DNA of 64,000 bases, taken from contig CAYXNX010000002.1 of NCBI GenBank assembly GCA_964467035.1, positions 10,896 to 74,895 of the forward strand. The letters are read 5' to 3'. The notes under the pieces are model-generated. The model ran no database searches. It worked only from the letters and a program-made list of their open reading frames with translations, and had not been told where the DNA came from. This DNA is from Candidatus Woesearchaeota archaeon (GTDB lineage Archaea; Nanobdellota; Nanobdellia; Pacearchaeales; GW2011-AR1). A program made the translations under genes and the position numbers. Numbering within the stretch: the stretch's first letter is position 1; each line of letters starts with the position of its first letter. Positions 27,141 to 64,000 of the stretch are shown piece by piece.

Positions 27141-29282
27141 ATGAAAAAAAGAAGTGAACTTACAAGTGCTCAAAAGGGAATTTTGGGAGCTATTGTTCTT
27201 GTTATTGTATTGGGGTTGGTTGGGGTTTTTTTGTTTAATGTTTTGATTGAAAAACCATTGCTTTCTCCTGAAAAAATTTTGGCTGGTCAAACTGAAGATA
27301 TTCGGTTGGATTTGGGAGAATCAAAAAATTTATCAATTAGTGGAAAAAATTATACTTTGAAGTATACTGATTCTGACTTTAATAATAATTGGGATTCTTC
27401 TGATGAAAATGCAATTTTTGTTTTGTGGGATGAAGAGGAAGTAGAGACTGTTTATTTTAATCAGGGTGATGATTTAGAATTTGAGGAAAATTTACCATTT
27501 AAGATTTTTGTTAAATCTGTTGTTCATAATACTTATACAGATAGGGTTACTTTGGAAATTACAAGTGGGGTATTTATTGAACCAGGTAGTTCTGAAAAAT
27601 TTGAAGTTGAAAAATCAAGTGAAGAAGCTTTGTTTTTTGGTGATGAAATCAAGTATTGGGTTTCACTTCCTTCTTCAGGCGATGAATTGAGGTTTGTTGA
27701 GTGGAGCGAATCTGGGGGAAAGATTACTAGTTCTAAGGAATTTCCGAAGTTTGAAAAAGGTTGTTTGAGTGTTAGAGAGGAGGGTTGGCCTATGGCTGTT
27801 TATTTGACTGAAGTTAACGATGAAAGTATTGAATTAGAAGTTTATAATAATGATTATGAAATTGAGGAATATTGTGAAGATGATAGAAATTGTTTTGATG
27901 AAAAATGTTTAGCTGGTTTTTGTGTTGGTAGTTCTAATGTAGATGAAAGTAAATTTCATGATATGGATAAAAATAGGGATTACAATATTGAACTTTCTGA
28001 ATTATCAAGGATTATTCAATTTCATAATTCTGAAGGGTATCATTGCCAAACTGGAACTGAAGAGGGTTATGCTCCTGGAGTTAATGATGGTAAGCAGGAG
28101 TGTGGAACTCATGATGCTGATTTAAATGGGGATTGGAAGATTAATGGAACAGAATTAAATAGGGTTATTGAATTTTTTGATGAGGGCTATTATCCTTCGG
28201 AGGAAACTAAAGATGGTTTTGAAATTGGAGAAGGAAATGATTGCGGAACTAATGATGAGTGTTCAGGCGGAGGTGTTTGTTTAAACGGTGTTTGTGTTCA
28301 AGGAGTTAATTTTGATTGTAGTTCTGATGATGTTTGTGGAGATAACGAGGTTTGTCAAAATGGGCACTGTATACTCCTTAGTTGTCCTTATACATTTGGG
28401 AGTGAATATCATAAAGCTGATTTGAATGGGGATTGGAAAATCGATGTTGGGGAATTGTTAAGGATTATTCAATTTCATAATTCTGAAGGGTATCATTGTA
28501 ATCCTGCATCTGAAGATGGTTATGCTCCAGGAGTTGATGATGATAGGCATATGTGTGGAACTCATGATGCTGATTTAGATGGGGATTGGAAAATTGATGG
28601 GGAAGAATTAAATAGGATTAGGGAGTTTAATAAGAATGGATTTAAGTATTGTCCTGAAGAAGATACTACTGATGGTTATTGTATAAGAGGGGGTGGAGAA
28701 GAAGGTGAAGGAGAAGGTGAACCCCCTAGTCCTGGAGGAGGTCCTTCTGGAGGAGGTCCTTCTGGAGAAGAAGATGATTGCGGAGATGGGATAGTAGATG
28801 AAGATGAAGAATGTGATGGGGATAATTTGAGTGGTAAAAGTTGTCTTGATTGGGGTTATGATAAGGGAACTCTTTCTTGTGATGAGGATTGTAATTTTGA
28901 TAGAAGGGGTTGTGGATATGAAGGAAGTGAAGGAGAAGGTGAAGGAGAAGAAGGAGAAGGGGAAGGAGAAGGGGAAGGAGAAGAACAATCTTATTGGTGG
29001 ATTCTTTATGTTGTTTTTGGTATTTTAATTATAGCTATAATTGCAGTAATTGTTTTTATAATCTTTTTTAGTAAAAAGGGTAAGGAGGGTTTTGGAAAAG
29101 GAAAATTATCTAAAGATAAACAAGATTTGGGTAAAAATAAATCAAATCAAAATGTTTCTTCAAAATCTTTGAAAGACCTGCCCAAAAATTCTGAAAAAAA
29201 ATCCTCTAAAAAAATTGTTAAAAAATCAAGGGATAAAGATTATAAAAACATAGGTCCAAAAATGAAGGATAATTTGGATTAA
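27141..29282 (+). CDS. Large surface/secreted protein, paralog B: signal anchor, four dockerin/EF-hand-like Ca-binding loops, Cys-rich modules, GE stalk, C-terminal TM anchor, Lys-rich tail
   Basis: The N- and C-terminal cassettes are near-identical to paralog A. Also DLNGDWKINGTELNRVIEFF-type loops and CGDGIVDEDEECDGDNLSGKSC. Confidence 0.7.
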   Translation: MKKRSELTSAQKGILGAIVLVIVLGLVGVFLFNVLIEKPLLSPEKILAGQTEDIRLDLGESKNLSISGKNYTLKYTDSDFNNNWDSSDENAIFVLWDEEEVETVYFNQGDDLEFEENLPFKIFVKSVVHNTYTDRVTLEITSGVFIEPGSSEKFEVEKSSEEALFFGDEIKYWVSLPSSGDELRFVEWSESGGKITSSKEFPKFEKGCLSVREEGWPMAVYLTEVNDESIELEVYNNDYEIEEYCEDDRNCFDEKCLAGFCVGSSNVDESKFHDMDKNRDYNIELSELSRIIQFHNSEGYHCQTGTEEGYAPGVNDGKQECGTHDADLNGDWKINGTELNRVIEFFDEGYYPSEETKDGFEIGEGNDCGTNDECSGGGVCLNGVCVQGVNFDCSSDDVCGDNEVCQNGHCILLSCPYTFGSEYHKADLNGDWKIDVGELLRIIQFHNSEGYHCNPASEDGYAPGVDDDRHMCGTHDADLDGDWKIDGEELNRIREFNKNGFKYCPEEDTTDGYCIRGGGEEGEGEGEPPSPGGGPSGGGPSGEEDDCGDGIVDEDEECDGDNLSGKSCLDWGYDKGTLSCDEDCNFDRRGCGYEGSEGEGEGEEGEGEGEGEGEEQSYWWILYVVFGILIIAIIAVIVFIIFFSKKGKEGFGKGKLSKDKQDLGKNKSNQNVSSKSLKDLPKNSEKKSSKKIVKKSRDKDYKNIGPKMKDNLD

Positions 29283-49713: not shown

Positions 49714-51726
49714 ATGGAAAAATCTGAAGAAATATTTGAAGAGGCTAAGAATTTTTTTAATTTATCGCATATTAAGAAATCTGTTGGACAAAGTATCAGG
49801 GAATCTGAAAAGGTTGTTTTTATTAATTTTGAAGATTTGGCAGAGTTTTCTCACGAGCTTTCAGATACTTTGTTGGAAAGGCCTGAAGAAATTTTGACTA
49901 ATTTAGAATCTGCTTTAAGTGAAACAGGTCTTATTAAAGAGCCAAAAATTAGGATGAAAAATATTCCTGAGGCAAGTAAGGTTAAAATAAGGGATATAAG
50001 GGCTAAACATTTGAGTAAATTTATTTGGGTTGAAGGTATTGTTAGGCAAGCAAGTGATGTTAGACCCCAAGTTGTAAGTGCTAAATTTGAATGTCCTTCT
50101 TGTGGAACTATAATTTCTGTTTTACAATTAGAAAAAAAGTTTAAAGAGCCGACTAGATGTTCTTGTGGTAGAAAGGGTTATTTTAAGCTTGTTTCAAAAC
50201 AGATGGTTGATGCTCAAAGGTTGGTGATTGAGGAATCTCCTGAAGCTCTTGTGGGTGGAGAACAGCCAAGGAGGTTGAATATTTTTGTTAAAGAAGATTT
50301 GGTTGAGCCAAAAATGGAAGAGAGAACTACTCCAGGTAGTAAAATTATGGTTTTGGGTATTTTGAATGAAATTCCTGTTCCTTTACAGACAGGTGCAATT
50401 TCTACAAGGTTTGATTTAGCTATTGATGCAAATAATGTTATTCCTTTAGAAGAAAGTTATGATGATTTGAAAATTAATGAAGAAGATGAAATGCAAATTA
50501 AGGAGCTTTCAGTGGATTCTCAAATTTTTAAAAAACTTTCAAGTAGTATTGCTCCAAGTATTTATGGTTATGAGGAGATTAAGCAATCTATTGTTTTGCA
50601 ATTGTTTGGGGGTGTTAAAAAGGTAAGGTCAGATGGGACATTTACAAGGGGGGATATTCATATTTTATTGGTGGGGGATCCAGGAGTTGCTAAGTCAGTT
50701 ACTTTGGGATTTATCTCAAAAATTGCTCCAAAAGGAAGGTATGTTGTAGGAAAATCTACCTCAGGGGCAGGGCTTACAGCGACGGTTGTGAAAGATGAGT
50801 TTTTGAAAGGTTGGAGTTTAGAAGCAGGAGCTATGGTTTTATCAAATAAAGGAATTGTTTGTATTGATGAAATTGAAAAAATGGATGCTCAGGACAGGAG
50901 TTCAATGCACGAAGCAATGGAACAGCAAACTGTGACAATTTCTAAAGCAAATGTTCAAGCAAGTTTGAGAGCAGAGACTTCTGTATTGGCGGCTGGGAAT
51001 CCCAAATTTGGTAGATTTGACCCTTATATGCCTATTGCTCAGCAAGTTGATATTCAACCTACTTTGCTTAGTAGATTTGATGTTATTTTTATGCTTAGAG
51101 ATAATCCTGATAAATCTAAAGATGAGGCAATTGCGTCACATGTTTTAAATCAACATAAGAAGTCGGTTTCTACTGCAAGTGTTGACCCAGAACTTTTTAG
51201 AAAGTATGTTGCTTATGCAAAACAAAATATTCATCCTACTTTGAGTGATGAGGCAATTAAAGAAATTAAAGATTTTTATGTTAATTTGAGAAATGCTCCT
51301 GTTTCAGGGGATATGGCTGTTAAGGCAATTCCTATTACTGCTCGGCAATTAGGGGCTTTGGTGAGAATGGGGGAGGCAAGTGCTAGAACAAGGTTATCTG
51401 AAGTAGTTGAAAAACAAGATGCTGAAAGAGCTATTGGAATTATGAAGTATTATTTAATGCAAGCGGGTTTTGACCAAGATACTCAGAGTTTTGATATTGA
51501 TAAAATTGTTACAGGTGTTACAGCTTCGAAAAGGGGCAAGATTATTGAGGTTAAAAATGCTTTGATTGATATGGAAAATAAATTTGGGAAACAAATTCCT
51601 GTTGAAGAGTTAGAAAAAAATTTACAAGGAAAAGTGGATAAAGTGGATTTGGATGAAGCAATTGAAAAACTTTCAATTTCTGGAGATATTTTTTCTCCTA
51701 AAAAAGGATTTGTTCAACTTGTTTAG
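49714..51726 (+). CDS. mcm: MCM replicative helicase
   Basis: Zn motif CPSCG...CSCG, Walker A LLVGDPGVAKS, Walker B CIDEIEKM, arginine finger SRFD, and a C-terminal wH. Confidence 0.95.
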   Translation: MEKSEEIFEEAKNFFNLSHIKKSVGQSIRESEKVVFINFEDLAEFSHELSDTLLERPEEILTNLESALSETGLIKEPKIRMKNIPEASKVKIRDIRAKHLSKFIWVEGIVRQASDVRPQVVSAKFECPSCGTIISVLQLEKKFKEPTRCSCGRKGYFKLVSKQMVDAQRLVIEESPEALVGGEQPRRLNIFVKEDLVEPKMEERTTPGSKIMVLGILNEIPVPLQTGAISTRFDLAIDANNVIPLEESYDDLKINEEDEMQIKELSVDSQIFKKLSSSIAPSIYGYEEIKQSIVLQLFGGVKKVRSDGTFTRGDIHILLVGDPGVAKSVTLGFISKIAPKGRYVVGKSTSGAGLTATVVKDEFLKGWSLEAGAMVLSNKGIVCIDEIEKMDAQDRSSMHEAMEQQTVTISKANVQASLRAETSVLAAGNPKFGRFDPYMPIAQQVDIQPTLLSRFDVIFMLRDNPDKSKDEAIASHVLNQHKKSVSTASVDPELFRKYVAYAKQNIHPTLSDEAIKEIKDFYVNLRNAPVSGDMAVKAIPITARQLGALVRMGEASARTRLSEVVEKQDAERAIGIMKYYLMQAGFDQDTQSFDIDKIVTGVTASKRGKIIEVKNALIDMENKFGKQIPVEELEKNLQGKVDKVDLDEAIEKLSISGDIFSPKKGFVQLV

Positions 51727-52016
51727 TTATTTTTCATTTAATAATTCTTTTGTTGTTCTACCATTATCTAAGAAATCAGTTTCTGGAAGAGATTCATTTG
51801 GGTAAATAGTTGTTTTTGTTTGAGTAGATGTTGAGTATAATAATTTGTTGTAATTTAATTTTTGGATTGGATTTTATTCTTGTTCAATTTCTAACCAGTT
51901 TTTTGTGTTGTTTTAATTTTGTGTTGCTTAGATAATTTTTGGCAAGTATTGGTATATTGTGTGGGAAAATAACTAAATCTTTAAAAAATAACCTGTTTAT
52001 TTTGTTTAGTGTGAAA

Positions 52017-52529
52017 ATGAAGAAGCTTGCTTTTGTTGGAACTCATGGAATTGGAAAGACTACTTTGACTCATCAGACTGTTTCAGAATTGAAAAAGAGG
52101 GGAGTTAATGCTGATTTTTTGGGAGAGGTTGTGAGAGATTGCCCTTTACCTATTAATGAAGGAACTTTGGAGGAAAGTCAAATGTGGATTATTCATAGTC
52201 AAATTGTTAAAGAACTTGAAATGAAAAATAAGTGTGATTGGTTGATTTGCGATAGAAGTGTTTTAGATGGATATGTTTATTATTTTAATAAGTTTGGAAA
52301 AAATGAAGTTTTGGAGAATTTAGTTAAAAATTTTCTTAAAAGTTATGATTTAATTGTTAGGGTTAAAATTAATCCAGATTTTTTGAAAGAGGACGGGATT
52401 CGTTCAGTTGATAAAGAATTTCAAAAAGAAATTGATGAAAAAATGTTTAGTTTTTTGAATGAAATGGGGGTTGATTATATTGAGTTTGAAGATGTTGAGA
52501 GAATTTGCGAAAAAATTTTGGAAGCGTAG
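52017..52529 (+). CDS. P-loop NTPase (AAA_28/NadR-like ATPase)
   Basis: FVGTHGIGKTTL Walker A and WLICDRS Walker B-like. The track start at 51939 is non-ATG. Confidence 0.5.
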   Translation: MKKLAFVGTHGIGKTTLTHQTVSELKKRGVNADFLGEVVRDCPLPINEGTLEESQMWIIHSQIVKELEMKNKCDWLICDRSVLDGYVYYFNKFGKNEVLENLVKNFLKSYDLIVRVKINPDFLKEDGIRSVDKEFQKEIDEKMFSFLNEMGVDYIEFEDVERICEKILEA

Positions 52530-52627
52530 TTTATTATCTAAATCTTTAAAAATTAGTTTTTATTTTTTATAAGATGATAGATGATTTAATTCAAATCAAG
52601 GATTATTTATTTTGGAGGTTGTTATAA

Positions 52628-53242
52628 ATGGCACAAGGAGATTTTAAAAGACAAACAGCTTATAAAATTAAAGTTGGTGATGTTTTTAAAGGTAAACCCT
52701 TTTATGATGGGGAGAGATTTAGTTTTATAGAGTTGGGTGATAAAAAAATTGCAAGAGTTAATATTGTTGCAAATATTGTTGAGCGTTATTTGTCTGAAGA
52801 TAAGAATTTTTTATCTTTAACAATTGATGATGCTTCTGGACAATTAAGAATTAAGGTATTTGGAGATGAAATTCCCAGGTTTGAAAATTTGGAGCAAGGA
52901 GATACAGTTATGGTTGTTGGGTTGTTGAGAAGTTACAATAATGAGCTTTATATTAATCCAGAGTTTATTAAAAAAAAGGACCCGAGATATTTGTTAGTTA
53001 GGAAATTAGAGTTTGAAAAGAGTGCTCCTAAAGAAGTTGATAATGGAAAGGTTATGGTAATTGCAGACCAAGTTTTGAAAATGATAAAAGAAGCAGAGCC
53101 AGAAGGGGTTTCGGGGGATAAATTGATTACAGAAGTGGGTGAGTCAAGTGATATTGTTAATCAAGAAATTAAAAAAGCATTGGAACAAGGAATTATTTAT
53201 GAACCTCGACCAGGAGTTTATAGATATTTGGGAAGTGAGTGA
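52628..53242 (+). CDS. OB-fold plus C-terminal winged-helix protein, RPA32/Stn1-like ssDNA-binding candidate
   Basis: OB region ARVNIVANIVERY...LTIDDASGQLRIKVFGDE...GDTVMVVGLLRSY. C-terminal wH LKMIKEAEPEGVSGDKLI...GIIYEPRPGVYRYL. Confidence 0.5.
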   Translation: MAQGDFKRQTAYKIKVGDVFKGKPFYDGERFSFIELGDKKIARVNIVANIVERYLSEDKNFLSLTIDDASGQLRIKVFGDEIPRFENLEQGDTVMVVGLLRSYNNELYINPEFIKKKDPRYLLVRKLEFEKSAPKEVDNGKVMVIADQVLKMIKEAEPEGVSGDKLITEVGESSDIVNQEIKKALEQGIIYEPRPGVYRYLGSE

Positions 53243-53301
53243 TTATAAAAGCTATTTCTGAAAATAGTAATCTTTAGAAATAAATTAGTTATTGTATTTT
53301 T

Positions 53302-53976
53302 ATGTATTTGGCACATATGAATAATTTGGGAAATTATGTTGTAGAAAAATTAGAGTATAGTATGGATTGTTCTAATATTGGTGGAAGTGATTTAAAATCG
53401 CATCCGAATTTTTTTGAGTTTGAACCAGCAAATTTTTTTCCTGGTTCAGGACAGATGAAAAGATTTTTTGGTGAGAGTGTTGAGTCTATTGTTGAAGACT
53501 TTGGTCAGGAACTTGAAGAACATGCAAAATTGGCTAGGAAAGTTCAAAAAGGATTAAGACCTGGAATAAATGAGTTGTATATTTTTAATGTTCCTAGTAA
53601 AGAGTTTCCATTGGGAGAGGTTTTTAATTATGGAGAACATGGAGGTTTTAATAGAATATTAACAAGACAAGTTATTTCAAAACCAGTCCTTTTAGCAATA
53701 GAAGAAGGTTTTAGGGGAAGTAGTAGAAGAATGGAAGCTTCAGAATATACTTCAGAAGTTCAGGGAAAAAATCCTTTGCCTAGGAAAGAATTTTTGGAAT
53801 TGGGAAGAGAGATGGTTAAAGTTTTGCTAGATTTTTATGATGAAGTTAATGAACCTTATTCAAAAAATATCGAAGAACTTGAGAATAAGGAAAGATTTGA
53901 AAGATTAAGACAAGTTCCTAAAGGTGTAAATATTGAGAAATTTTTGCCCCATTCTTCTTCTAATTATATTCATTAA
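53302..53976 (+). CDS. Hypothetical protein
   Basis: 224-aa ORF, no family recognised. Confidence 0.4.
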   Translation: MYLAHMNNLGNYVVEKLEYSMDCSNIGGSDLKSHPNFFEFEPANFFPGSGQMKRFFGESVESIVEDFGQELEEHAKLARKVQKGLRPGINELYIFNVPSKEFPLGEVFNYGEHGGFNRILTRQVISKPVLLAIEEGFRGSSRRMEASEYTSEVQGKNPLPRKEFLELGREMVKVLLDFYDEVNEPYSKNIEELENKERFERLRQVPKGVNIEKFLPHSSSNYIH

Positions 53977-54009
53977 ATTTTGAAGATGAAAAAGCGAGGT
54001 TGAATGACT

Positions 54010-54534
54010 TTATTTCTTTTTGTTCATCCAATAAGTAAATCCAATTAAAATTGAAAGCCCTATTAGAGAAATTATAAATCTTGCTAAGTTTTCTGCATTT
54101 GGCCAATAACTGAAAGCTCCGTAAAGTAAAGTTATAATTCCTCCCCCCATAATTCCAGAGCTGACATTGTTGAGTTTGAAAAAGGTTGCTCCTATTGTGA
54201 GTAAGATTAATGATAAAATGATTGTTATTATGAAAATGTTTTTTGAATGTTTTGTTCTTGCATTTTTATATTGTTCATAGCATTTTTCTTGTTCACTTTC
54301 GCAAGGAAAGAATTCACAGTCATTGTTTGGATCTCGAGAAACATAACTTCCGTCAGGACATTCTTTTACATCTTGGGCGCAAAGTGTTTGGTTTTTGGGA
54401 ACTAAAGGGGGTTTTGTTTGGCTACAAAAATCATCATATTCTGGAGAAGGATAGAAAGTTTGAATTCCTGTGAAAATTACTAAGAAAGATAAAATTGTTA
54501 TTGCAATTCCTATTAGTAAGTTTTTAATGTCCAT
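54010..54534 (-). CDS. Hypothetical membrane protein with a Cys-rich extracytoplasmic loop
   Basis: N-terminal TM helix, then CSQTKPP...CAQDVKECPDGS...DCEFFPCESEQEKC, then three TM helices. Confidence 0.5.
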   Translation of the reverse strand: MDIKNLLIGIAITILSFLVIFTGIQTFYPSPEYDDFCSQTKPPLVPKNQTLCAQDVKECPDGSYVSRDPNNDCEFFPCESEQEKCYEQYKNARTKHSKNIFIITIILSLILLTIGATFFKLNNVSSGIMGGGIITLLYGAFSYWPNAENLARFIISLIGLSILIGFTYWMNKKK

Positions 54535-54619
54535 ATTTGGGTTAAAAAAACATCTTTTATAAAATTTTGCAAGTGTTCAAATTCGATAGACTTTTAAATC
54601 AAGTTTTTATAAGTTTTAT

Positions 54620-55027
54620 ATGGGATATGAAGAACTTTTGCATGGAGCTTATGAAGAAGTAGAGCAAGGAGAATCTTGTGATTTAAGTAGATGGAAGCTT
54701 CCTGAAATTGATGTTAAAATTTGTGGAAGTAAAACATTTATTTGTAATTTTACACAAATTGTTATTTATCTTAGAAGAAGTCAGGAGCATATTTGCAAGT
54801 TTTTATCTAAAGAGTTGGCAACTTATTCTAAGATAGAGGGAGATAAGCTTGTTTTAAATCGGAAACTTTCAAAAACAAAAATTGAAGAAAAAATTAAACT
54901 TTATATTTGTAAATTTGTTCAGTGTCCTGATTGCAAAAAGCCAGATACTGAGCTTGAGAAAAAAGATGGAATGTTGATGTTGCATTGTTTGGCGTGTGGG
55001 GCAAGACATAGTTTTGGGAGATGTTAG
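54620..55027 (+). CDS. eif2b: Translation initiation factor aIF2 beta subunit
   Basis: eIF2-beta/eIF5 core (FLSKELATYSKIEGDKLVLNRK) and zinc ribbon CPDCKKPDT...LHCLACGA. Confidence 0.85.
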   Translation: MGYEELLHGAYEEVEQGESCDLSRWKLPEIDVKICGSKTFICNFTQIVIYLRRSQEHICKFLSKELATYSKIEGDKLVLNRKLSKTKIEEKIKLYICKFVQCPDCKKPDTELEKKDGMLMLHCLACGARHSFGRC

Positions 55028-55140
55028 GTAATTTAAGAAGCTGTTGTTAATTATTTTTAGTAGGCTTTGGGCAAAATAAATGGAGATTTCCGAAGATGCA
55101 TACTTTTTTAAATTAAAATTTATTCTAAAGTAGTATCAAG

Positions 55141-55317
55141 ATGGCAAAAGAATCAGATTTAGAAAAAGAATTAGCAATTCAAATAATGGCTGGAACTTTA
55201 GTTTCAGTTTTAAAAGATACTCAAAGAGAGGTTAATATAATGAATCAAGAAATTGAATCAGCTTTAGAATATTGTAGAAATTATAATCTAGAACCTGTTT
55301 CTCAAGAATATCGTTAG
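55141..55317 (+). CDS. Small hypothetical protein (58 aa)
   Basis: ATG-to-TAG ORF read by hand, below the track cutoff. No family. Confidence 0.25.
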   Translation: MAKESDLEKELAIQIMAGTLVSVLKDTQREVNIMNQEIESALEYCRNYNLEPVSQEYR

Positions 55318-55446
55318 CTTAAATTCTGAATTACATATAATTGCGATTAAAAAACCTGGGGCTTGAGCGAAACGAAGTAACCTTGAGTTTTTTTGTTTCT
55401 TTTTTAAAAAGAAAATTTTTATAGTTTCTCTTTTTCTTAAGTATAA

Positions 55447-55899
55447 ATGGAAAGAACGCTGATAATTATCAAACCAGATGGAATTCAAAAAAAATTAGTT
55501 GGAGAAGTAATTAAGAGAATAGAGAAAGAAGAATTAGATATTGTTAATGTTAAAATAATAGAATTAACAGAGGAACAGGTTTCTAAGCTTTATGAAGATT
55601 CCTTAAACAGATTTCCTCAAATCAGAAAAGAAGTCATAGAATATATGACTGAAAACCCCTCAATCATAATGATAATTCAAGGAGATGACGCGATTAAAAA
55701 AGGAAGAGATATTAGGGGTTTGTCTAATCCTTCCAAATCTCCGATAGGTAGTGTGAGAAGAGATTTTGCAGGAGACCAAAATATGGAAGAATTAACCAAA
55801 AATGGAAAGGTTACAAAGAATGTAATGCATGCTTCTGGAAATAAAGAAGAAGTTGAATTTGAAATTAAATTATTCTTTGGAGAAGAAGATGAAATCTGA
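55447..55899 (+). CDS. ndk: Nucleoside diphosphate kinase
   Basis: MERTLIIIKPDG..., RGLSNP..SVRRDF and NVMHAS (active-site His). Confidence 0.9.
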   Translation: MERTLIIIKPDGIQKKLVGEVIKRIEKEELDIVNVKIIELTEEQVSKLYEDSLNRFPQIRKEVIEYMTENPSIIMIIQGDDAIKKGRDIRGLSNPSKSPIGSVRRDFAGDQNMEELTKNGKVTKNVMHASGNKEEVEFEIKLFFGEEDEI

Positions 55900-58639
55900 T
55901 TTTTTTTATTCAAAAACTACTGGATTATATGTTTCAAGAAAACCGCTAAAAATTGATAGCAGAGTAAAAAAAGCAACAGAAAATGAGAATATTGAACTTA
56001 ATTGGGACGATGAAGGGAGAATAAATTTTGTGGATTTTGATGAATCAAAGAGAATTCTTACTCTGTTAGGTTCTACTATGCTAAGTCCTGTTGAATATTG
56101 GAAAGTTTTAGAAGATGCAAAAAATGAAAAAGATGAAGAGATGATTCAGGAGTTGATGTCTAATAAATATTGTGAATGGTTGGATAGGGTTTATCTGATT
56201 GATAAAAACTGGATTGATCATCCAAAAATAATTGGGGATTATGAATATTCTGGCAAAAAAGAGAAATCAGTCGAACCAATTGGAAAACCAGGATGGTTTA
56301 ATCCTGAAAATAATATTAATTTTAAATTGGGTGTTCCAAAAAAAATAAAGTTATTTAGAGATAAGTTTTCGACAAGTTGGAAATATTGGTCTCCTGATTT
56401 TTCTGTGACTAAGCACAGACCAAGAGCCCCTATAAGAGGCTATGTGACTTCTGTTGGAAAACCTTCTTTTGATCAAGGTATCCCTGTTGATGCTAAACAA
56501 CCAATGCAAATGATTAGAGAGTGTAGGACAGAACCTTTAGAACCTCCAATAAAAATAGAAATCTTGAAAACTGCCTTAGAAATATTAAAACAATATGATC
56601 AAAAAAAGATAGATACAAATTTTGTAGTCGAATTTTTGGAAGAGCATGGAAAATTATTTAGGAATTCAAAGCAATTAACAATTTATAAAATAAGAGAGAA
56701 ATTATTTGATTTGCTTGGATTAATGAAAATCAAAACAATAAATGAAAAAGATAATAAAATGTTATCTATGTTGGATAAAGCATCAAGAACCTTATATGAT
56801 TCTGATCTTGAAAAAGTTGGTTTTGATAATTTTTTAGAATTTATTAAAAAATCTAGACAAAGATTGAAAGATGCCCTTGATGAAAAAAAGGATATTGTTT
56901 TTGTAATGGGGCATAAAAATCCAGATACTGATACGGTGATTAGTTGTATCTTTGAGTCTTGGAGAAATCACTTGTTGGATAAAGGACAAATTGTTTATTT
57001 TCCTATTGTCCAGAATTATAAAATTCCAGATGAAGTAAGAAGGCTATTGGGTGATGAAATTTCTGATTCAATCTTACTAGAAAAAGAAGAGGATTACAAA
57101 AAAGCTAAAAATTCAGGTTTAGCCAGATGGATTTCTGTAGATCAAAATAGGGAGCCAGATGTTCAGAGATATTTTATTTCAATTATTGATCATCATGTTC
57201 CTTCTGAAATATCCTTACTTCAAGATTTACCAAAAACAATAGAATTAATTGGATCCTGTACTGCTTTAATATTTCAGAAAATGTTGGGAATAGGATTTTA
57301 TCCAGACAGAAAACTTGCAAAAATTCTTCATGGAGCTACATTGATGGATACAGAAAATAGAGTATTTCATAAGATGACTGAAAAGGATAAAATGATAATG
57401 AACTATTTAAAAGAATTATCTGAAATTAAAAACGAAGATGAATTTTATAGCGATTTAATGTCTTACCTTCTTAACACAGATGATCCAAACATATTATTTG
57501 GAAGAGATTACAAAGAAGACTGGGGATTTGGATTTGCTGTAGCAAAAATTAAAGGAGGTTTTAGTGAAAAAGGAAAAGGAATCAAGGACGATTTAATTAA
57601 AAAAGCTGTTAAATTGGCTCGTGAAAATAATATAAATAAGAATTTTCCTTTAACAATTTTAAGAATTACAGACTATTTGGAAGATAATATTACTGTAAAT
57701 AGGGAAAGAGTTTATCTTGTGTTTAATGAAGAAAGTTCAAAAGAATTTAAATCAGCAATATTTGATTTGTTAGAGAAAATTGTAAAATTTGAATTTGGAG
57801 AGGTTAATATTACTACAACTGGAGAATTTGTGGAGTTTTGGGGAACTGGGATGCAATTATCTCGAAAGAAAACTGCACCAATATTAGAACCTGTTATTAA
57901 AGTTTTTAATGAATATTTTTATTCTCCCAAAAATAAACTTTGGATCAAGAGGGATTTCCTAAAAAGATCTAAAGATGTTTTAAATGCTGGAAAGAAACTA
58001 AAACTAAAAGTTTCTTTTGATCAGGAGCAAAGAGTAAATTATCTCACTTATCCAGAAGCAAGGTTTTTGGTAGAAGAATTGGGGTTTACTATTCTCACAC
58101 TAAAAGAATACTGGCTTGCCTTAAATGATGCTAAGAAAATTGGGGATGTACAAATGATTGACAGCTTACAAGGATCGAATTTTGTAGAATTTTTAGATAC
58201 AATGATTAAAGACTATGGTATTATGCTAGAACATCCTACTATTATTAGAAATGGAGAAGGATATAAGTTTGATGGAAAAAAAGTTGGAGTTGTAATTCCA
58301 AAGGGAAAGCCAAGTTTAATACATCCAGACCAAATAGATCCTAATACAGGAATACCTAAGGAGGTTAGACCTCCTTCAGAATATGGTAATCCTCATCTTT
58401 GGAGATATTGGGAACCTGATTCAAACTTAGTTATCCCTACAAGAAGTTATATATTCTTATTAAAGCAACCTTGCTGGGATGGGAAATTTCATGTTAATGA
58501 TAGTTTTCCAAATTTAGGAATAAGGCCTTGCTGTAAAAAATTAGTTATACCTCATGTAAAAATTAATCAAGATGATAAGAAATTAGAGATTGAAATTAAA
58601 AAAGAAGGGGATACGATAAAGCATACTTGGAAAAAATAA
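55889..58639 (+). CDS. 916-aa protein with a family-II inorganic pyrophosphatase-like DHH/DHHA2 core flanked by two homologous domains of unknown function
   Basis: The ATG overlaps the ndk stop (ATGAAATCTGA). The core carries GHKNPDTDT, VDQNRE, IIDHH, GSCTAL, ILRITDYLEDN and LSRKKTAP. The flanks share EYW..L.DAK, E(W/F)LD, HP.II, GKP and W.YW.PD. Confidence 0.75.
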   Translation: MKSDFFYSKTTGLYVSRKPLKIDSRVKKATENENIELNWDDEGRINFVDFDESKRILTLLGSTMLSPVEYWKVLEDAKNEKDEEMIQELMSNKYCEWLDRVYLIDKNWIDHPKIIGDYEYSGKKEKSVEPIGKPGWFNPENNINFKLGVPKKIKLFRDKFSTSWKYWSPDFSVTKHRPRAPIRGYVTSVGKPSFDQGIPVDAKQPMQMIRECRTEPLEPPIKIEILKTALEILKQYDQKKIDTNFVVEFLEEHGKLFRNSKQLTIYKIREKLFDLLGLMKIKTINEKDNKMLSMLDKASRTLYDSDLEKVGFDNFLEFIKKSRQRLKDALDEKKDIVFVMGHKNPDTDTVISCIFESWRNHLLDKGQIVYFPIVQNYKIPDEVRRLLGDEISDSILLEKEEDYKKAKNSGLARWISVDQNREPDVQRYFISIIDHHVPSEISLLQDLPKTIELIGSCTALIFQKMLGIGFYPDRKLAKILHGATLMDTENRVFHKMTEKDKMIMNYLKELSEIKNEDEFYSDLMSYLLNTDDPNILFGRDYKEDWGFGFAVAKIKGGFSEKGKGIKDDLIKKAVKLARENNINKNFPLTILRITDYLEDNITVNRERVYLVFNEESSKEFKSAIFDLLEKIVKFEFGEVNITTTGEFVEFWGTGMQLSRKKTAPILEPVIKVFNEYFYSPKNKLWIKRDFLKRSKDVLNAGKKLKLKVSFDQEQRVNYLTYPEARFLVEELGFTILTLKEYWLALNDAKKIGDVQMIDSLQGSNFVEFLDTMIKDYGIMLEHPTIIRNGEGYKFDGKKVGVVIPKGKPSLIHPDQIDPNTGIPKEVRPPSEYGNPHLWRYWEPDSNLVIPTRSYIFLLKQPCWDGKFHVNDSFPNLGIRPCCKKLVIPHVKINQDDKKLEIEIKKEGDTIKHTWKK

Positions 58640-59098
58640 TTTTGCTAAGCAAAACTAAATGTCCGAAGGACTAAGGAAATCCTCATATAAATTCAAAAAC
58701 GAAGTTTTTGCTATTTAGTTTTCTTGAAAAGAAAACTGCGCGCGTCCTCTCTATTGGGCGAGCATTTTGCTCTTGACTAACTAAACTAAAAATAACAAGA
58801 GTAAATTTGGGGTTGGGAGAAAAATATTATTTCCTATTTCTTTGTTTTAATTCTAACTTCTAGGTATTCTCAAAAATTGAAACTAAATCGCTGTTAAAGT
58901 TTTGGGGAAGGATATCGAAATTTATACTTTCAGAGAAATTTGTTCGGATGCTTTGATTAATAAGAACAAATTTACTTTTATTGATAAAAAATTAGTGAAT
59001 AAATGTTTTTTTCGGGAGACAAAATAATTCTTTAGAGAATCTTATTAACTATTTAGTAGTAAAACAATAGAAACTTTTATAAAGTATTAAAAAATACT

Positions 59099-59902
59099 AT
59101 GTTTATGGAAAAAATATTAAGTAAAGATAAAAGAATTCAAATTGCTAGAGAAGAGTTAGAAAATTTTGAAATGCCTCACCTACCTTCTTTAGAAGAAATA
59201 GCTTGGGCTTTTCCTGTTGCAGGACCTACAAATCTTACAACTCAAAAAAATAATGGACAATATTTTAATATTCAAGATGTGAATGCATGGAGAGTTCTTT
59301 TATTATTACAAAATTATAATAATACTCTGCAAGGATCTTTACAAGGAGATGTAAATCAAAATGAGTATCCTGTTTCACATACTAGTTTTCGTGACCCATT
59401 TGAAATTTTAGATGTTACCCATTTATCTCCAATGTTTCCTGATTTTGTAAGGGGGGTTTATGATAAAGAAATGGAAGAATCAGGTAGACCTTCAAGAGGA
59501 TATTTTTGGGAGAACATTCCTAGAGAAATTTTACAAGGTGTAAAAAGAATACATGACATCAATTGGAATACTCAACATAATGAAGAAGATACTCGGTATT
59601 ATTTAAGTAATGTTAGAAACATCTTAAATGAAGGTAGCAGATACTTAACTAAAGTTGTTGAAAATTCAAGTGAGGCGAATGAGTGGCCACAATTAACAAA
59701 AGCGTCTGTTGATGATCTTAAAAATGGTTCTTATTTTCAAATTGTTTTATTTGGAAGAGGAAGGGCTGGATTAAAACAAGGCGTTTCTATGGGAGTATCT
59801 GGAGATAAATTAACACTTAGGTATTCTGGAAGAGATGAACCTGTAGAATATAATTTAAATGAATTTAGGGATGCTGATCCTAAATTGTGGACCATCAAAT
59901 AA
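59099..59902 (+). CDS. Hypothetical protein
   Basis: 267-aa ORF isolated between two long intergenic regions. No family recognised. Confidence 0.45.
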   Translation: MFMEKILSKDKRIQIAREELENFEMPHLPSLEEIAWAFPVAGPTNLTTQKNNGQYFNIQDVNAWRVLLLLQNYNNTLQGSLQGDVNQNEYPVSHTSFRDPFEILDVTHLSPMFPDFVRGVYDKEMEESGRPSRGYFWENIPREILQGVKRIHDINWNTQHNEEDTRYYLSNVRNILNEGSRYLTKVVENSSEANEWPQLTKASVDDLKNGSYFQIVLFGRGRAGLKQGVSMGVSGDKLTLRYSGRDEPVEYNLNEFRDADPKLWTIK

Positions 59903-59978
59903 AATAAATTTTTGGGGGAACAACTTTCTCAAGAAAAAAGACAATCTCTTCTAATAGGGGTGGGTGGTCGGGGGTTTT

Positions 59979-60203
59979 AAAGTGTCCTCTTTACTAACTT
60001 TTTATATTTTAGTTTTGGCTCACGATTGAGTTTAACATCGCGATTAAGAGAAGTCGCCGAAGGCGATTTGGGTGGAGCGAGGTGCAACCGAGCGTAACCT
60101 CATAATCCTTGTTATATTCCCCGAAGGGCTGAAATTTAGTGCAATGTTGGCGAAGCCAAAAAATCAAAGTCGTGAGCCATATTAATTTTAAAGAGGACAC
60201 TTT
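59979..60203. ncRNA. Candidate structured RNA or palindromic element of unknown class
   Basis: Nested long-range helices: 59979-59993 pairs with 60189-60203 (15 bp) and 60016-60025 with 60170-60179 (10 bp). There are three internal C-GAA-G hairpins, and the region is visibly GC-enriched relative to its surroundings. Confidence 0.35.
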
Positions 60204-60326
60204 AGGACTGCAGGTTCCGTCTGTAAAACCCATTAAATGAGAGATGTGTGCGTCTTCTTTGCTTCTTTCTTCCTAAGAAAGAAGATGGGCTCCGAATTTT
60301 GCTTCTTTTTCTAAAAGAAGAAGTTC

Positions 60327-61196
60327 TTAGAAATAATATTCTAAAGCTTCCTTAAATTTTTTATCTTTTGTATTTTTATACAATTCCTCAATTTTTTCTT
60401 TTAATCCATACTTTAAGATTTTCCTCCATAACTCGGGATAATTTTTTTTAATTAAATCCCAATTACCTAATTGAGGATTGCTGAAACATTTTGCAGAACA
60501 CATATAGCAAACGCCATCTCCTTTACATAAATTTTCTGTATCTTTATGAAAATAAATATCTTTAACATACGGAAAATTTAATTTATCAAGAACCTTAAAA
60601 ACTTCCTCTTTTTTCAACATCGCAATAGGCAAAAATAAATTTTCTGGATTTCCAAGTTGTAAATAACCTTTCTCTAAAACTCTTTTATATCTTTTTGGTT
60701 TATCTGATGCTAAGAAACCCATAATTGTTAAATCGGGTTTCAATTTGCTATATTGTTCTTGAAGAATAGCGTCCTTTAATTTACTACAAGCATAATTTAA
60801 GTTTAATTTAGAAAAATCTTTTTTCTCGTATCCCATTTCTTCTATTCCTGGATATATTGGAATTCCAAATTTTTCTATAAATTCTTTTTCACTATAATCG
60901 ATTTTGAAGTAATGTAAATTTTTTATTTTTGGTTTAATATTCTCATTAAATAACTTATTAAAATCAGGAAAATTCATACGCATATCAACATACAAAACAT
61001 TAGTATCTGGTTTGTGTTTCAAAAGAAATGCTAACAGCAATAAGCTATCAGAGCCTCCGCTAAACAGAAGAAGAGGATTTCTAGATAGCTTAAGTCCCTC
61101 AGAAAAGATTTTATCTATTTTGTTAATTTTTTCATCTAAAGACAAATCTAAATCTTCAGGTTTAAATTCAAAGATTGAGTTTTTTTTCGATTTCAT
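60327..61196 (-). CDS. PP-loop ATP pyrophosphatase of the PAPS-reductase family with a C-terminal Cys cluster
   Basis: LLLFSGGSDSLLLLAF (SGGxDS), VLYVDMRMNFPD, IMGFLASDKPKRYKR and CKGDGVCYMCSAKC. The ORF is open up to 61238, and the second Met at 61196 is preferred. Confidence 0.75.
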   Translation of the reverse strand: MKSKKNSIFEFKPEDLDLSLDEKINKIDKIFSEGLKLSRNPLLLFSGGSDSLLLLAFLLKHKPDTNVLYVDMRMNFPDFNKLFNENIKPKIKNLHYFKIDYSEKEFIEKFGIPIYPGIEEMGYEKKDFSKLNLNYACSKLKDAILQEQYSKLKPDLTIMGFLASDKPKRYKRVLEKGYLQLGNPENLFLPIAMLKKEEVFKVLDKLNFPYVKDIYFHKDTENLCKGDGVCYMCSAKCFSNPQLGNWDLIKKNYPELWRKILKYGLKEKIEELYKNTKDKKFKEALEYYF

Positions 61197-61764
61197 CTGA
61201 ATAATCAAATAATTCCTTATGGTGATTGAATGCTTCAAATATTTTTTCTTTGTTTTCTTTTGCTATTTTTTCAGATTCGTTAAAATGAAATTTTCTTTCA
61301 TTCATTTTCTCCATTAATCTTAAAAAAATCTGCTCATCATTCATTTTAAATTTTTCATGCATAATAATTGATTTTCTTATTACTTCTCCAATCGTTGTCT
61401 TTTCTAATTTATCTGCGTCAAAAAGGATTTTTTGAAATTCAGTTTTACAATCTTCAAAAACTCCATGAGTTGAAATTGTTTCTTTGATAATTTTTATTTC
61501 CTCTTTACTAAAATCTTCTCCTAGAAGAATTTCTTCAACCATTTCAACAGAATATTTTTCATGCATATCTTCTCCTTCATTTTCAAATTGTTTTTGATAA
61601 CCAACATCATGGAGGAGTGCACAAACTTGAATCATCCTTTTGTCTTTTTTTTCTAAATTTAATTCTTCTGAAAGCATTGTAGCAAAAGCTAAAACTCTTT
61701 TTACATGGCCCCATTTATTCACAGAGAGGTTTTCATAAATTTTCTTAACTTTTTCTTTTATCAT
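61168..61764 (-). CDS. HD-domain metal-dependent phosphohydrolase
   Basis: GHVKRVLAFATML...VCALLHDVGY (H...HD). Confidence 0.8.
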   Translation of the reverse strand: MIKEKVKKIYENLSVNKWGHVKRVLAFATMLSEELNLEKKDKRMIQVCALLHDVGYQKQFENEGEDMHEKYSVEMVEEILLGEDFSKEEIKIIKETISTHGVFEDCKTEFQKILFDADKLEKTTIGEVIRKSIIMHEKFKMNDEQIFLRLMEKMNERKFHFNESEKIAKENKEKIFEAFNHHKELFDYSDEIEKKLNL

Positions 61765-62737
61765 CTTGTTTTTTCCAATATTTTTCTCTTATGTGACAAT
61801 TCCCACAATTCCAATTTTTTCTGAAGTTCTTTGCTTTTTTAGATAACCATAATTCCTTAAGTTTTGATTTCCTTATATTTCCTAAATGTAATTCTCCTGC
61901 ATTACATTCCCAAACATCTCCCAATACATCAATATACAATCCATATTTGATTTGTCTACATTGGAACCCTCCCAAAAACGGAAGTTGATAAGGATAATTT
62001 AATCCTTTTTCATTATCATAAGTTTTTGCTTCATTATAAATCTTCGTGTATTCTTTCTTATTTAAAACAAGACCTCTTTCTAAAGCCTCTCCATGAGGAA
62101 TTAATCCAGAGAATTGGGGAGATATGTTATTTTCTCTACAAAATTTAAACAAAGGAATTACATCATTTTTATTTATCTTTGTGGCTATACAATCTATAGC
62201 AAGCCTTGGGGGAGATTGTTCATTAAACCCATAATCCATTAAAGTTTTTAATGCTTTTTTTATTTTCTTATCATAACCTTTAACCCCCACCAACTTGTCT
62301 TGAATTTTATTATCAAATGAATTATACTTAAGAATGATAGAAGTCTTTAATCTAAAAAGTCTTTTAACACTTTCTTCATTAATCATAGTTCCATTTGTAT
62401 AAATAACAGAGAGTATTCCTAATTTTGAAGCAAATTCTATGATTTTCCAAAAATTCGGATCTAACATTGGCTCTCCTGCTCCAATAAATTGTAAATTTTT
62501 ACAACCTAATTTTTTTGCTTGTTTTATAATATCATAATATTCTTCTAATAAAAGCTCGTTTTCTTTTTTGCAATGTCTTTCTCCAACACTTGTTTTATCA
62601 CAATAAATACATCTTAAGTTACAAATATTTGACATATCCAAATCTAAATTAAGTAATTTGTTTTCCTTTTCTGCTTCTTCTATTTCTGCATCCGAATAAT
62701 ATAAACCTTTTACGAATGTTTTTTCGAGATTATTCAT
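61745..62737 (-). CDS. Radical SAM enzyme with a SPASM/twitch-like C-terminal Cys cluster
   Basis: CNLRCIYCD (Cx3Cx2C), GAGEPMLD, and C-terminal CRQ...ECN...GNIRKSKLKELW...CGNC. Confidence 0.85.
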   Translation of the reverse strand: MNNLEKTFVKGLYYSDAEIEEAEKENKLLNLDLDMSNICNLRCIYCDKTSVGERHCKKENELLLEEYYDIIKQAKKLGCKNLQFIGAGEPMLDPNFWKIIEFASKLGILSVIYTNGTMINEESVKRLFRLKTSIILKYNSFDNKIQDKLVGVKGYDKKIKKALKTLMDYGFNEQSPPRLAIDCIATKINKNDVIPLFKFCRENNISPQFSGLIPHGEALERGLVLNKKEYTKIYNEAKTYDNEKGLNYPYQLPFLGGFQCRQIKYGLYIDVLGDVWECNAGELHLGNIRKSKLKELWLSKKAKNFRKNWNCGNCHIREKYWKKQDDKRKS

Positions 62738-63254
62738 TTTTTATAACTTCTCCTAATTTGATAATTGCGTCTTCTATTGATAAATCTTTGTTTCTTAATA
62801 AATAATGGGGCAAGTTAAGACAAGAAGAATAAATTTTAGAATATGCAGAATTAAAATTATTCTCTTTGATTATTTGTTCTAGTTCTAAACATCTTCTTTC
62901 TTCTCCATCTTTTTGTCTTCTTTGCAAAACCAATTCAGGATTTGCTTCAACCAAAATAATTTTTCCGGAATATTCTGAATTAAATCTTAAATGCATTTGA
63001 TACTTTTCATCAATTCCCATATGAAAATCATAAGGAGTTTTGCTACTACTTGCAGCGTAGTGGGTATCTATAATAAACTTTCCTTCGGTGTCAATCAATT
63101 CTTGAATAAATCTTTTATCAAATTCTGGACGATATCTTCTGAATCTTTCTCCAGTATTAATGTATTCCAAATCTAATAAAGAAGATATAGCTCTGGCTAA
63201 TGAAGTTTTTCCTACCCCCTTACTTCCTCCTATAAAAATTAGTTCTTTACTCAT
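62730..63254 (-). CDS. P-loop nucleotide kinase resembling archaeal-type adenylate kinase (AdkA family)
   Basis: FIGGSKGVGKTS Walker A, then IIDTHYAASSSKTPY and ILVEANPELVLQRRQKD, collinear with AdkA (VDTH...TP.GY, ...RR). Confidence 0.6.
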   Translation of the reverse strand: MSKELIFIGGSKGVGKTSLARAISSLLDLEYINTGERFRRYRPEFDKRFIQELIDTEGKFIIDTHYAASSSKTPYDFHMGIDEKYQMHLRFNSEYSGKIILVEANPELVLQRRQKDGEERRCLELEQIIKENNFNSAYSKIYSSCLNLPHYLLRNKDLSIEDAIIKLGEVIKNE

Positions 63255-63534
63255 CTTTTATTACAAATTCTGGGACGACATGCCTAACAAAAGAAATGTC
63301 TTCTTTATTTAATTGACCGCCGGATAACAAAAAGGTTTTCCCCTCTCTTCTGTAGCTTACTTCTTTCCCTAATCTATCTAATATTTTTTCTAATTTCTCC
63401 TTGTCAGTATTGCATTCTCTGGAATTGCAAATATCTCTTTGAGAATCTATGCAAGGAAATCCGCAATTATCTTTTTTCCTTTTTTCTCTAATATCATGAC
63501 TATTATAATCTGGTTCTCCAAATAAATAAGACAT
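63247..63534 (-). CDS. Small Cys-containing protein (95 aa); possibly the C-terminal part of the upstream ORF
   Basis: CGFPCIDSQRDICNSRECN. Its reading frame stays open upstream to 63639 without a start codon. Confidence 0.4.
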   Translation of the reverse strand: MSYLFGEPDYNSHDIREKRKKDNCGFPCIDSQRDICNSRECNTDKEKLEKILDRLGKEVSYRREGKTFLLSGGQLNKEDISFVRHVVPEFVIKDE

Positions 63535-63625
63535 TGCACAAGAAGTGTGCCAAAAAACAGGAATTTGTGCAACATCTCCAATTATTTTTGTTGCAAGAGA
63601 TGAGAGTTCATCGTCTCTCTGTTTG

Positions 63626-64000
63626 TTAGTGTATGTTTTTTATTTCTGGGATTGGAATTCCTCTAATTTTTAGTGATTCGACTATCTCTGGAGTTAATCT
63701 TATCCCGGAGAGTGAAGAGGCATCAACTTTTCCTTTTATTTGAGAAGCTAAATTTGTCAACCTTTCTTCGTCTATCCATTCCCTAACTAAGGGACGAACA
63801 TAATCCACAACTTTGATACCTTTCTTTTTTGCATCATCCATTAATTTAATTCTTTGTTCATAAAAAACAGATTCTAAGCCTGGAATTAAATTTGCATAAG
63901 AAACAAAAAGCCCTATTTTTAAATGTTCTAATTTATTTAATTCATCCAAATAATCTTCTCCAGGATGAATCTTTGAAATTAATCCAATTTTATTTTTCCA
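63626..64000 (-). CDS. Hypothetical protein, 5' end outside the window
   Basis: The frame is open to nt 64000, so the listed start at 63949 is an internal TTG. Partial sequence ...KIHPGEDYLDELNKLEHLKIGLFVSYANL... has no family I can assign. Confidence 0.45.
   Translation of the reverse strand, partial: WKNKIGLISKIHPGEDYLDELNKLEHLKIGLFVSYANLIPGLESVFYEQRIKLMDDAKKKGIKVVDYVRPLVREWIDEERLTNLASQIKGKVDASSLSGIRLTPEIVESLKIRGIPIPEIKNIH

Follow-up and report, generated by a model that had tools for sequence, protein, structure and literature searches.

A protein with a pyrophosphatase-like DHH/DHHA2 core between two lectin-fold domains, encoded by a gene overlapping the end of ndk in a Woesearchaeota genome

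What kind of protein is made from a long gene that begins inside the end of ndk, and what might it do beside a nucleoside diphosphate kinase (NDK)? The question arose in a 64,000-nt stretch (here called the window) of contig CAYXNX010000002.1 from a Candidatus Woesearchaeota archaeon. The window has a G+C content of ~30% and archaeal markers (aIF2-beta at 54620-55027 and an RPA-like OB protein), and its source assembly amounts to 0.76 Mb at 87% completeness. A first-pass annotation, made from the sequence, had read the 916-aa product as a family II pyrophosphatase (PPase)-like core set between two copies of an unfamiliar domain. The analysis described here leads us to regard the protein as probably a cytoplasmic DHH/DHHA2 phosphoanhydride hydrolase that uses a divalent metal (Mn2+/Co2+ type) and acts alongside NDK in the metabolism of the nucleotide pool, that is, in the salvage of nucleoside mono-, di- and triphosphates (NMP, NDP and NTP). 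Below, homologues, loci and genomes are denoted by P, L and G numbers, respectively.

The assignment of the core was borne out by a profile built from 61 homologues, by structural comparison and by the conserved catalytic residues. All motifs quoted in the first-pass annotation are present and in the order claimed: GHKNPDTDT (residues 341-349), VDQNRE (417-422), IIDHH (432-436), GSCTAL (455-460), GATLMDTENR (482-491), ILRITDYLEDN (590-600) and LSRKKTAP (657-664). A phmmer search of PDB sequences with the single protein reached B. subtilis PpaC at E 0.004, with an alignment extending to PpaC residue 260, and the 61-homologue profile retrieved eleven family II PPase sequences (3e-13 to 5e-7), followed by a c-di-AMP phosphodiesterase (1.5e-4). 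An AlphaFold2 (AF2) model of the full-length protein was obtained with pLDDT 89.9 and pTM 0.83. In a Foldseek search with this model the first match was yeast PPX1 (E 6e-15, 413 aligned columns); family II PPases were found at 2e-14 to 1e-11, with TM on target of 0.74-0.79 and a root-mean-square deviation (rmsd) of 3.8-4.5 Å. The fold match probability was 1.0 and whole PPase chains were covered, while DHHA1 enzymes (NrnA, GdpP, RecJ-like) ranked lower. The model fitted the S. gordonii and PNP-bound PPase structures far better than B. subtilis 1k23 (rmsd ~11 Å), suggesting that it represents the closed-lobe state.

Family II PPases share a catalytic set that is numbered H9, D13, D15, D75, H97, H98, D149, K205, R295 and K296 in the B. 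subtilis enzyme. Within the DHH domain of the window protein, H342, D346, D348, D418, D434-H435-H436 and D487 align with PpaC H9, D13, D15, D75, D96-H97-H98 and D149. Within the DHHA2 domain, K542 and R659-K660 were placed by motif (RDYK and SRKK). Each of these residues is invariant across the 61 homologues. DHH superfamily motifs I (DxD), II (D), III (DHH) and IV (D) occur in order, with GHKNPDTDT, VDQN, IIDHH and LMDT invariant; RDYK and QLSRKK of the DHHA2 type are likewise invariant, and the GGGH of DHHA1 is not present. The histidine-to-glutamine substitution in VDQN, singled out in the first-pass annotation, does occur in the window protein but is not family-wide, some members (P0096) having VDHN, and the position is presumably not on a metal ligand. 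By profile and model, then, the core is assigned as a DHH/DHHA2 enzyme closest to the family II PPases and yeast PPX1, and it has the full set of residues that an active phosphoanhydride hydrolase of the family II PPase/PPX type would need.

The two flanks had been described as homologous to each other and as belonging to no recognizable family, and both statements hold at the level of sequence. Residues 3-232 and ~677-903 are 30% identical (BLASTP E 4e-32), and in the full model the secondary-structure elements of the two flanks follow in identical order. The N-terminal flank carries the motifs FYS, EYW, EWLD, PGWF, WKYWSPD, RGYVTSVGKPS.D and RECR, and the C-terminal flank FYS, EYW, FVEF, PGL, LWRYWEPD, RSYIFLL and LGIRPCC. 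In a joint alignment of 32 copies, N copies clustered with N copies and C with C (C-C identity 45-80%, N-C 27-36%), indicating that the domain was duplicated before the family spread. Positions that vary in neither kind of copy, numbered by the first sequence of that alignment, include S8, E96, two prolines, the W.YW motif, R181, D193 and R208. None of the 32 copies matched Pfam, searches of PHROGs and NCBIfam with the flank domain gave only noise, and a flank profile found nothing significant among PDB sequences (best E 0.18); a match to a well-known family in a common architecture was thus not found.

The fold of the flanks could nevertheless be placed, and it is not a new one. An AF2 model of the C-terminal flank was obtained (pLDDT 94.7, pTM 0.91), and the 50 top PDB matches listed by Foldseek for it are lectin-fold or related receptor-binding proteins. 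Among them are TaqVP and Mtd, which are variable proteins of diversity-generating retroelements (DGRs), as well as animal C-type lectins, Link modules, FGE, EgtB and SenA. Against BFVD, three matches had E <0.001, and ten lay at 3e-4 to 1e-2 with probability 0.94-1.0 and TM on query of 0.40-0.57. Of these ten, five bear the name tail collar fibre protein, and the rest have another name or none. AlphaFold and Foldseek thus point to the C-type-lectin fold, and on these models the flanks are best described as an unnamed, very divergent sequence family of that fold, assigned at fold level only.

As the first-pass annotation stated, the gene begins 11 nt inside the end of ndk: its ATG is at 55889 and the ndk TGA at 55897-55899. 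A Shine-Dalgarno-like GGAG at 55879-55882, within the 3′ end of ndk and 6 nt 5′ of the ATG, may serve as its ribosome-binding site. The first in-frame ATG of the open reading frame (ORF) lies further upstream, at 55829; position 55889 was taken as the start because homologues begin at MKSDFFYS. The ndk product is 150 aa long and matches Pfam NDK at E 6.6e-36. The 916-aa protein has neither a signal peptide nor a transmembrane segment.

The linkage to ndk is conserved. In seven of the 14 loci that have a full-length member and whose flanks could be read, ndk lies next to the DHH gene (the window, L006, L009, L013, L097, L098 and L099). The two genes overlap in L013 as well as in the window, overlap by 4 nt in L098 and are separated by 2 nt in L099. 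In L097, ndk stands on both sides of the DHH gene, preceded by a uracil phosphoribosyltransferase (UPRTase) gene; in L009 it is divergent; and in L006 the order is ndk, PRK, DHH and then CYTH (a weak match). N-terminal NDK fusions were found in four separate 50%-identity clusters (P0059, P0063, P0074 and P0080), with the junction in each case falling precisely on FYS, where the flank begins.

Loci without ndk have other nucleotide-related genes as immediate neighbours: NUDIX (L010), an AAA_18 kinase with PRK-CYTH downstream (L014), an AAA_28 kinase (L096), dTMP kinase together with an HD protein (L011) and UDG (L015). In L007, where a core-only relative is found, an AAA_28 kinase gene overlaps the DHH gene. 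AAA_28/AAA_18 kinases occur near the family in L007, L013, L014, L096 and L097, and PRK/uridine kinase and CYTH neighbours in L006 and L014. Judged from these gene assignments, the theme of the context is the conversion of NMP to NDP to NTP and the maintenance of the nucleotide pool.

Homologues also bear on the integrity of the gene. A word-indexed search gave 172 relatives, more than 110 of which are collinear proteins of 860-1100 aa with 42-84% identity; this excludes an assembly or frameshift fusion, an artefact that the first-pass annotation had allowed for. Named sources are Woese-, Pace-, Nano- and Aenigmarchaeota, SR1, Paceibacterota and other Patescibacteria, the close homologues being from Woese-, Pace- and Nanoarchaeota. 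An exhaustive search of 1.84 billion cluster representatives with a hidden Markov model of the flank gave 177 clusters, in DPANN archaea, the Candidate Phyla Radiation (CPR) and a few other small-genome metagenome-assembled genomes (MAGs). The flank domain is found almost only with the DHH core: 16 of 21 scanned longer or atypical flank matches also carry it, and the exceptions include P0167 (with a weak, sub-threshold radical-SAM match) and P0235 (with a PPDK N-terminal domain). The six-helix linker is likewise kept in the core-only relative, a 457-aa ORF of L007 that matches query residues 241-679.

Any match at all was found in only four of 201 genomes of the window's own phylum, among them one full protein (63% identity), the core-only ORF just described and a 168-aa N-flank remnant. 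A pattern scan of 185,579 species representatives added four full-length members, in MAGs labelled Omnitrophota, Saccharibacteria, Bdellovibrionales and Planctomycetales, two of them embedded in giant ORFs. This rare, patchy and cross-domain distribution points to spread by horizontal transfer among small-genome, host-dependent lineages. Seven clusters consist of giant proteins (2.3-4.3 thousand aa), and in the six of these scanned against Pfam the flank-DHH-flank module is chained to PRK (uridine-kinase-like) and CYTH, methyltransferase, pseudouridine synthase, APH and TPR domains. From these domain matches they look like multi-enzyme chains, not adhesins.

Database labels on family members read DHH phosphoesterase or inorganic pyrophosphatase/exopolyphosphatase. 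The first-pass annotation had called the architecture undescribed; labels for its members therefore exist, and it is in the literature that the description stands, where we found no paper on the prokaryotic family, on a DHHA2-plus-lectin-fold architecture or on an NDK-DHH fusion.

If the protein is an NDK-linked phosphoanhydride hydrolase, a mechanism can be proposed from its conserved residues. H342, D346, D348, D418, H435 and D487 would form a two-metal site, and a terminal phosphate or pyrophosphate (PPi) would be clamped, as the two lobes close, by H436 on the DHH side and by K542 and R659-K660 on the DHHA2 side. The lectin-fold flanks may act as non-catalytic ligand- or partner-binding modules, either in recognition of a substrate or effector or in docking of NDK.

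CYTH/TTM proteins act on tri- and pyrophosphate-type substrates. Neither PPK1 nor PPK2 was found in five of six carrier genomes, which disfavours long-chain polyphosphate as the substrate and makes a long-chain polyphosphatase unlikely. Neither family I PPase nor H+-PPase was found in the window genome (87% complete) or in the carriers G191, G151 and G201. From the absence of these kinases, the PPase phyletics and the CYTH partners, the substrate is most likely PPi or a short phosphoanhydride (P3/P4, nucleoside tetra- or polyphosphates), a predicted range that agrees with those of family II PPase, PPX1 and PRUNE. A kinase-CYTH architecture is known from plant TTM1/2 (PMC9582702).

The simplest competing explanation, and a narrower version of the one we favour, is that of a plain housekeeping enzyme: a soluble family II PPase with accessory domains, clearing PPi from polymerase, aminoacyl-tRNA synthetase and phosphoribosyltransferase reactions. 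Such a role is possible in the window genome, since all PPi- and metal-binding residues of PpaC are retained, neither family I PPase nor H+-PPase was detected there or in the three carriers named above, and the gene string of L097 includes the PPi-producing UPRTase. As a general account of the family, however, it has to accommodate its rarity in the phylum, the co-occurrence with H+-PPase in the carrier G202 and with both H+-PPase and family I PPase in G203, and four genomes of the same family that lack both the DHH/DHHA2 family and other PPases. Nor would plain PPi removal require the ~600 additional residues, which are highly conserved, or the NDK fusions. A role as sole housekeeping PPase by phyletic complementarity is unsupported, given that G202 and G203 possess further PPases, whereas many non-carriers lack any, and we think the housekeeping explanation as a whole possible though rather doubtful. 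Of 12 nearly complete relatives of the window's genome (G001-G191), five show no family I PPase, H+-PPase or member of the present DHH/DHHA2 family.

With regard to substrate, the main rival is a phosphodiesterase for nucleotides or oligonucleotides, whether a nanoRNase, a pAp phosphatase or an enzyme cleaving cyclic dinucleotides, that would feed NMPs from scavenged nucleic acid into kinase/NDK salvage, the flanks binding nucleic acid. DPANN and CPR organisms depend on nucleotide salvage, the neighbours of the family are NMP/NDP kinases and nucleotide-pool enzymes, and the DHH enzymes NrnA, GdpP and RecJ were matched structurally at 1e-11 to 1e-8. Those DHHA1 enzymes superpose at rmsd 13-15 Å and TM <0.5, however, against 3.8 Å and 0.79 for the PPases, and the C-terminal lobe is of the DHHA2 type, with the SRKK and D.K phosphate clamp in place of DHHA1 with GGGH. 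Moreover, the window genome already has three other DHH proteins with GGGH-type DHHA1 motifs. We therefore consider a phosphodiesterase improbable. The fold of the flanks raises the further thought of a binding or receptor-like protein, such as a DGR-type variable protein or a host-recognition lectin, in which the DHH core would be secondary or inactive. The nearest folds are indeed those of phage tail-fibre domains and of the DGR variable proteins TaqVP and Mtd, the homologue P0116 has an N-terminal hydrophobic leader, and DPANN and CPR organisms are known to be rich in DGRs (PMC5006420). Yet no template/variable repeat of the 3′ part of the gene was found within window positions 50000-64000 (14 kb), and the C-terminal face, where variability would be expected, belongs to the best-conserved regions (LWRYW.PD, R..IFLL, LG.RP); the flank was accordingly rejected as a DGR target. 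The window protein lacks export and membrane signals, its catalytic residues are invariant and its partners are cytoplasmic enzymes, which together make a receptor hardly credible.

Several observations weigh against the NDK-linked phosphoanhydride hydrolase that we prefer. The window protein scores 25.0 bits (E 2.5e-5) against Pfam DHH (PF01368), where the gathering cut-off is 28.1; in the genome-level scan the score was 28.0 bits, rising to 28.8 when its neighbours were included in the frame, and many homologues have a precomputed PF01368 match. Pfam DHHA2 (PF02833) has no match in the window protein and a weak one (21.8 bits) in the homologue P0154, so the core assignment was made from profile and structure. 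Matches to NCBIfam family II PPase models are weak (43-55 bits against curated cut-offs of 283-753), the PpaC equivalog NF003877 giving 43 bits where 283 are called for, and the protein departs from the ~310-aa two-domain architecture. The best of these matches are to CBS-type family II PPases (NF011447 and relatives, E 6e-15) and cover the catalytic parts only; no CBS or DRTGG domain was found by Pfam in the window protein. For the C-terminal flank, no PDB match in Foldseek reached E 0.001 (E 0.08-1, TM on query 0.13-0.44). Membership of the FGE-sulfatase family (PF03781) was rejected, hhalign against six genuine FGE domains from bacterial genomes giving a probability of 0.6% and E 0.09; the sole aligned segment is the signature helix and an 'LPTE.EW'-like turn, and a resemblance to FGE motifs (LPTE.EW, RGGSW, GFRC) is unsupported at sequence level. 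The part played by the flanks is something we infer. Linkage to ndk is missing from seven of the 14 loci, mostly those of CPR-type members below ~48% identity, and also at P0071 (52%), P0030 (62%) and P0023 (65%). Finally, the presence of other PPases in two of six carriers (G202 and G203) counts here as well, as does the lack of all three PPase types in five of nine non-carrier relatives.

A bolder extension of the NDK-linked reading is that the partnership of NDK with DHH/DHHA2 enzymes is an ancient, general unit and a 'Rosetta stone' for the animal PRUNE-NME pair. The enzyme would then form a complex with NDK, its flanks docking the NDK oligomer or sensing nucleotides, and hydrolysis (of PPi, Np4 or P3-P4) would be coupled to NDP/NTP phosphotransfer. 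We regard this as unlikely; if true, ultrasmall symbionts would have in this complex a device for controlling their nucleotide pool.

Table 1. Position of ndk, the DHH gene and its encoded domains in the window
Feature	Position	Strand	Basis
ndk, nucleoside diphosphate kinase	55447..55899	+	Pfam NDK, sequence
Whole gene: C-type-lectin-like / helical / DHH / DHHA2 / C-type-lectin-like	55889..58639	+	AF2 full model, homologues; ORF reading of window
N-terminal flank, residues 1-215, N copy of C-type-lectin-fold domain	55889..56533	+	BLASTP to C copy, full model
Six-helix linker domain, residues 223-332, before DHH	56555..56884	+	DSSP of full model
DHH catalytic domain (predicted), residues 336 to ~515	56894..57433	+	Pfam DHH (residues 337-466), PpaC alignments, Foldseek
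DHHA2-type substrate-binding domain (predicted), residues ~530-672	57476..57904	+	PpaC alignment, Foldseek
C-terminal flank, residues 673-885, C copy of C-type-lectin-fold domain	57905..58543	+	AF2 domain model, Foldseek
Three-stranded beta tail, residues 889-915, poorly conserved	58553..58633	+	DSSP, conservation map

The surroundings of the gene were also inspected. No tRNA was found in or around it, the only Rfam hit there was one sub-threshold snoRNA-like match, and matches resembling promoters or terminators stayed within what shuffled sequence would give. Neither an Rfam nor a tRNA match occurred in the 460-nt spacer (58640-59098). The ndk-DHH region is flanked by genes for a 267-aa protein (59099-59902, +) and a 224-aa protein (53302-53976, +) that have neither Pfam nor PADLOC matches, and a role of the DHH protein as an anti-phage defence component was rejected, there being no PADLOC match. 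Just downstream, the minus strand carries three successive genes (60327-62737), whose products are a 330-aa radical SAM/SPASM protein, a 198-aa protein with an HD domain and a 303-aa PAPS-reductase-like ATP pyrophosphatase; in L011 and L097, too, HD proteins are encoded in the vicinity of the family. Further away, 27141-29282 (+) encodes a 713-aa protein with hydrophobic segments at its N- and C-terminus, repeated dockerin/EF-hand-like motifs ('HDADLNGDWKI.G.EL.R'), Cys-rich stretches and a Gly/Glu-rich spacer, which from these features is probably a surface protein of the DPANN cell.

Three observations concern individual members of the family. In G081, the 168-aa ORF L008:1372-1875 corresponds to the first half of the N flank (36% identity to residues 3-124) and directly follows a 397-aa ORF, which we take to resemble S-adenosylmethionine synthetase; the shorter ORF may be the remnant of a decayed copy. 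In L015:4001-6748, from an SR1 MAG (homologue P0023), the gene is translatable only with TGA read as glycine. All seven of its CGA codons and its single CGG stand at tryptophan positions of the window protein, several of them family-invariant, and arginine positions of the window protein are never CGA or CGG there (AGA 24, AGG 2, CGT 1). This codon usage would fit a CGA/CGG-to-Trp reassignment on top of code 25, a change that has reportedly occurred in a clade of Absconditabacterales. The giant module proteins include P0121, P0122, P0136, P0140 and P0145, with representatives of up to 4348 aa and an alpha-amylase-like domain among the partners; in L016 (Omnitrophota MAG) and L019 (Planctomycetales-labelled 1.8-Mb MAG) the module lies inside giant ORFs that stay open across the loci, of at least 2736 and at least 3625 aa.

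The family thus represents a known kind of enzyme joined to a new sequence family of known fold, with a conserved and possibly mechanistic link to NDK. Most genomes checked have no recognizable pyrophosphatase, and DPANN and CPR organisms live on salvaged nucleotides; a conserved, NDK-coupled PPase/PPX-like enzyme with putative binding domains of its own is a candidate key step in the handling of the NTP pool and of PPi in minimal cells. The placing of lectin-fold domains in tandem around an enzyme, as opposed to on a surface receptor, would widen the known uses of this fold.

Comparison with characterized systems helps to define what is shared and what is particular to this family. With the family II PPases (PpaC of B. 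subtilis and Streptococcus gordonii/mutans; PDB 1k23, 1k20, 1i74) it has in common the two-lobe DHH and DHHA2 fold, the metal ligands, the DHH histidines, the lysine of D.K and the RK of SRKK. Identity to these enzymes is only 16-22%, however, and the 916-aa protein exceeds the ~310-aa PpaC by a six-helix N-terminal extension and two ~215-aa lectin-fold domains; it also has a conserved ndk partner and is restricted to ultrasmall or small-genome lineages. There is precedent for such elaboration, as in CBS-PPases a family II PPase core is regulated by added nucleotide-binding domains. In those enzymes (PRK14869-type, ~540 aa) the additions are CBS/DRTGG domains inserted inside DHH, whereas here they are lectin-fold domains at the termini.

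Yeast PPX1 (PDB 2qb7), the top Foldseek match, belongs to the same DHH/DHHA2 class, and human and Drosophila PRUNE offer the most striking parallel, a functional one, that of a DHH/DHHA2 enzyme tied to NDK, in the present family through overlapping genes in an operon and through fusions. Human PRUNE1 is a short-chain exopolyphosphatase of the DHH/DHHA2 class and a binding partner of the NDK NME1; in Drosophila, prune and awd(K-pn) give the classic case of a lethal interaction (PMC11156750). The binding of PRUNE to NME1 goes through a disordered C-terminal tail that the present protein does not have, and PPX1 and PRUNE have no lectin-fold domains. The 61-homologue profile search of PDB listed only PPases and GdpP, giving no sequence-level link to PPX1 or PRUNE, and with a core no closer to these than to bacterial PPases, common ancestry of the two NDK partnerships is not established. 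The repeated NDK adjacency and fusion would be an independent prokaryotic case of the animal PRUNE-NME1 (prune/awd) pairing, and a bacterial or archaeal model could make the logic of that pairing experimentally approachable. The flanks, for their part, share their fold with C-type-lectin-fold domains such as those of TaqVP (5vf4), Mtd (1yu4), human FGE (1y1e), EgtB and phage tail-fibre tips, at TM-scores of only 0.25-0.57. They are not hypervariable, fall outside the named sequence families and are arranged in tandem around an enzyme core.

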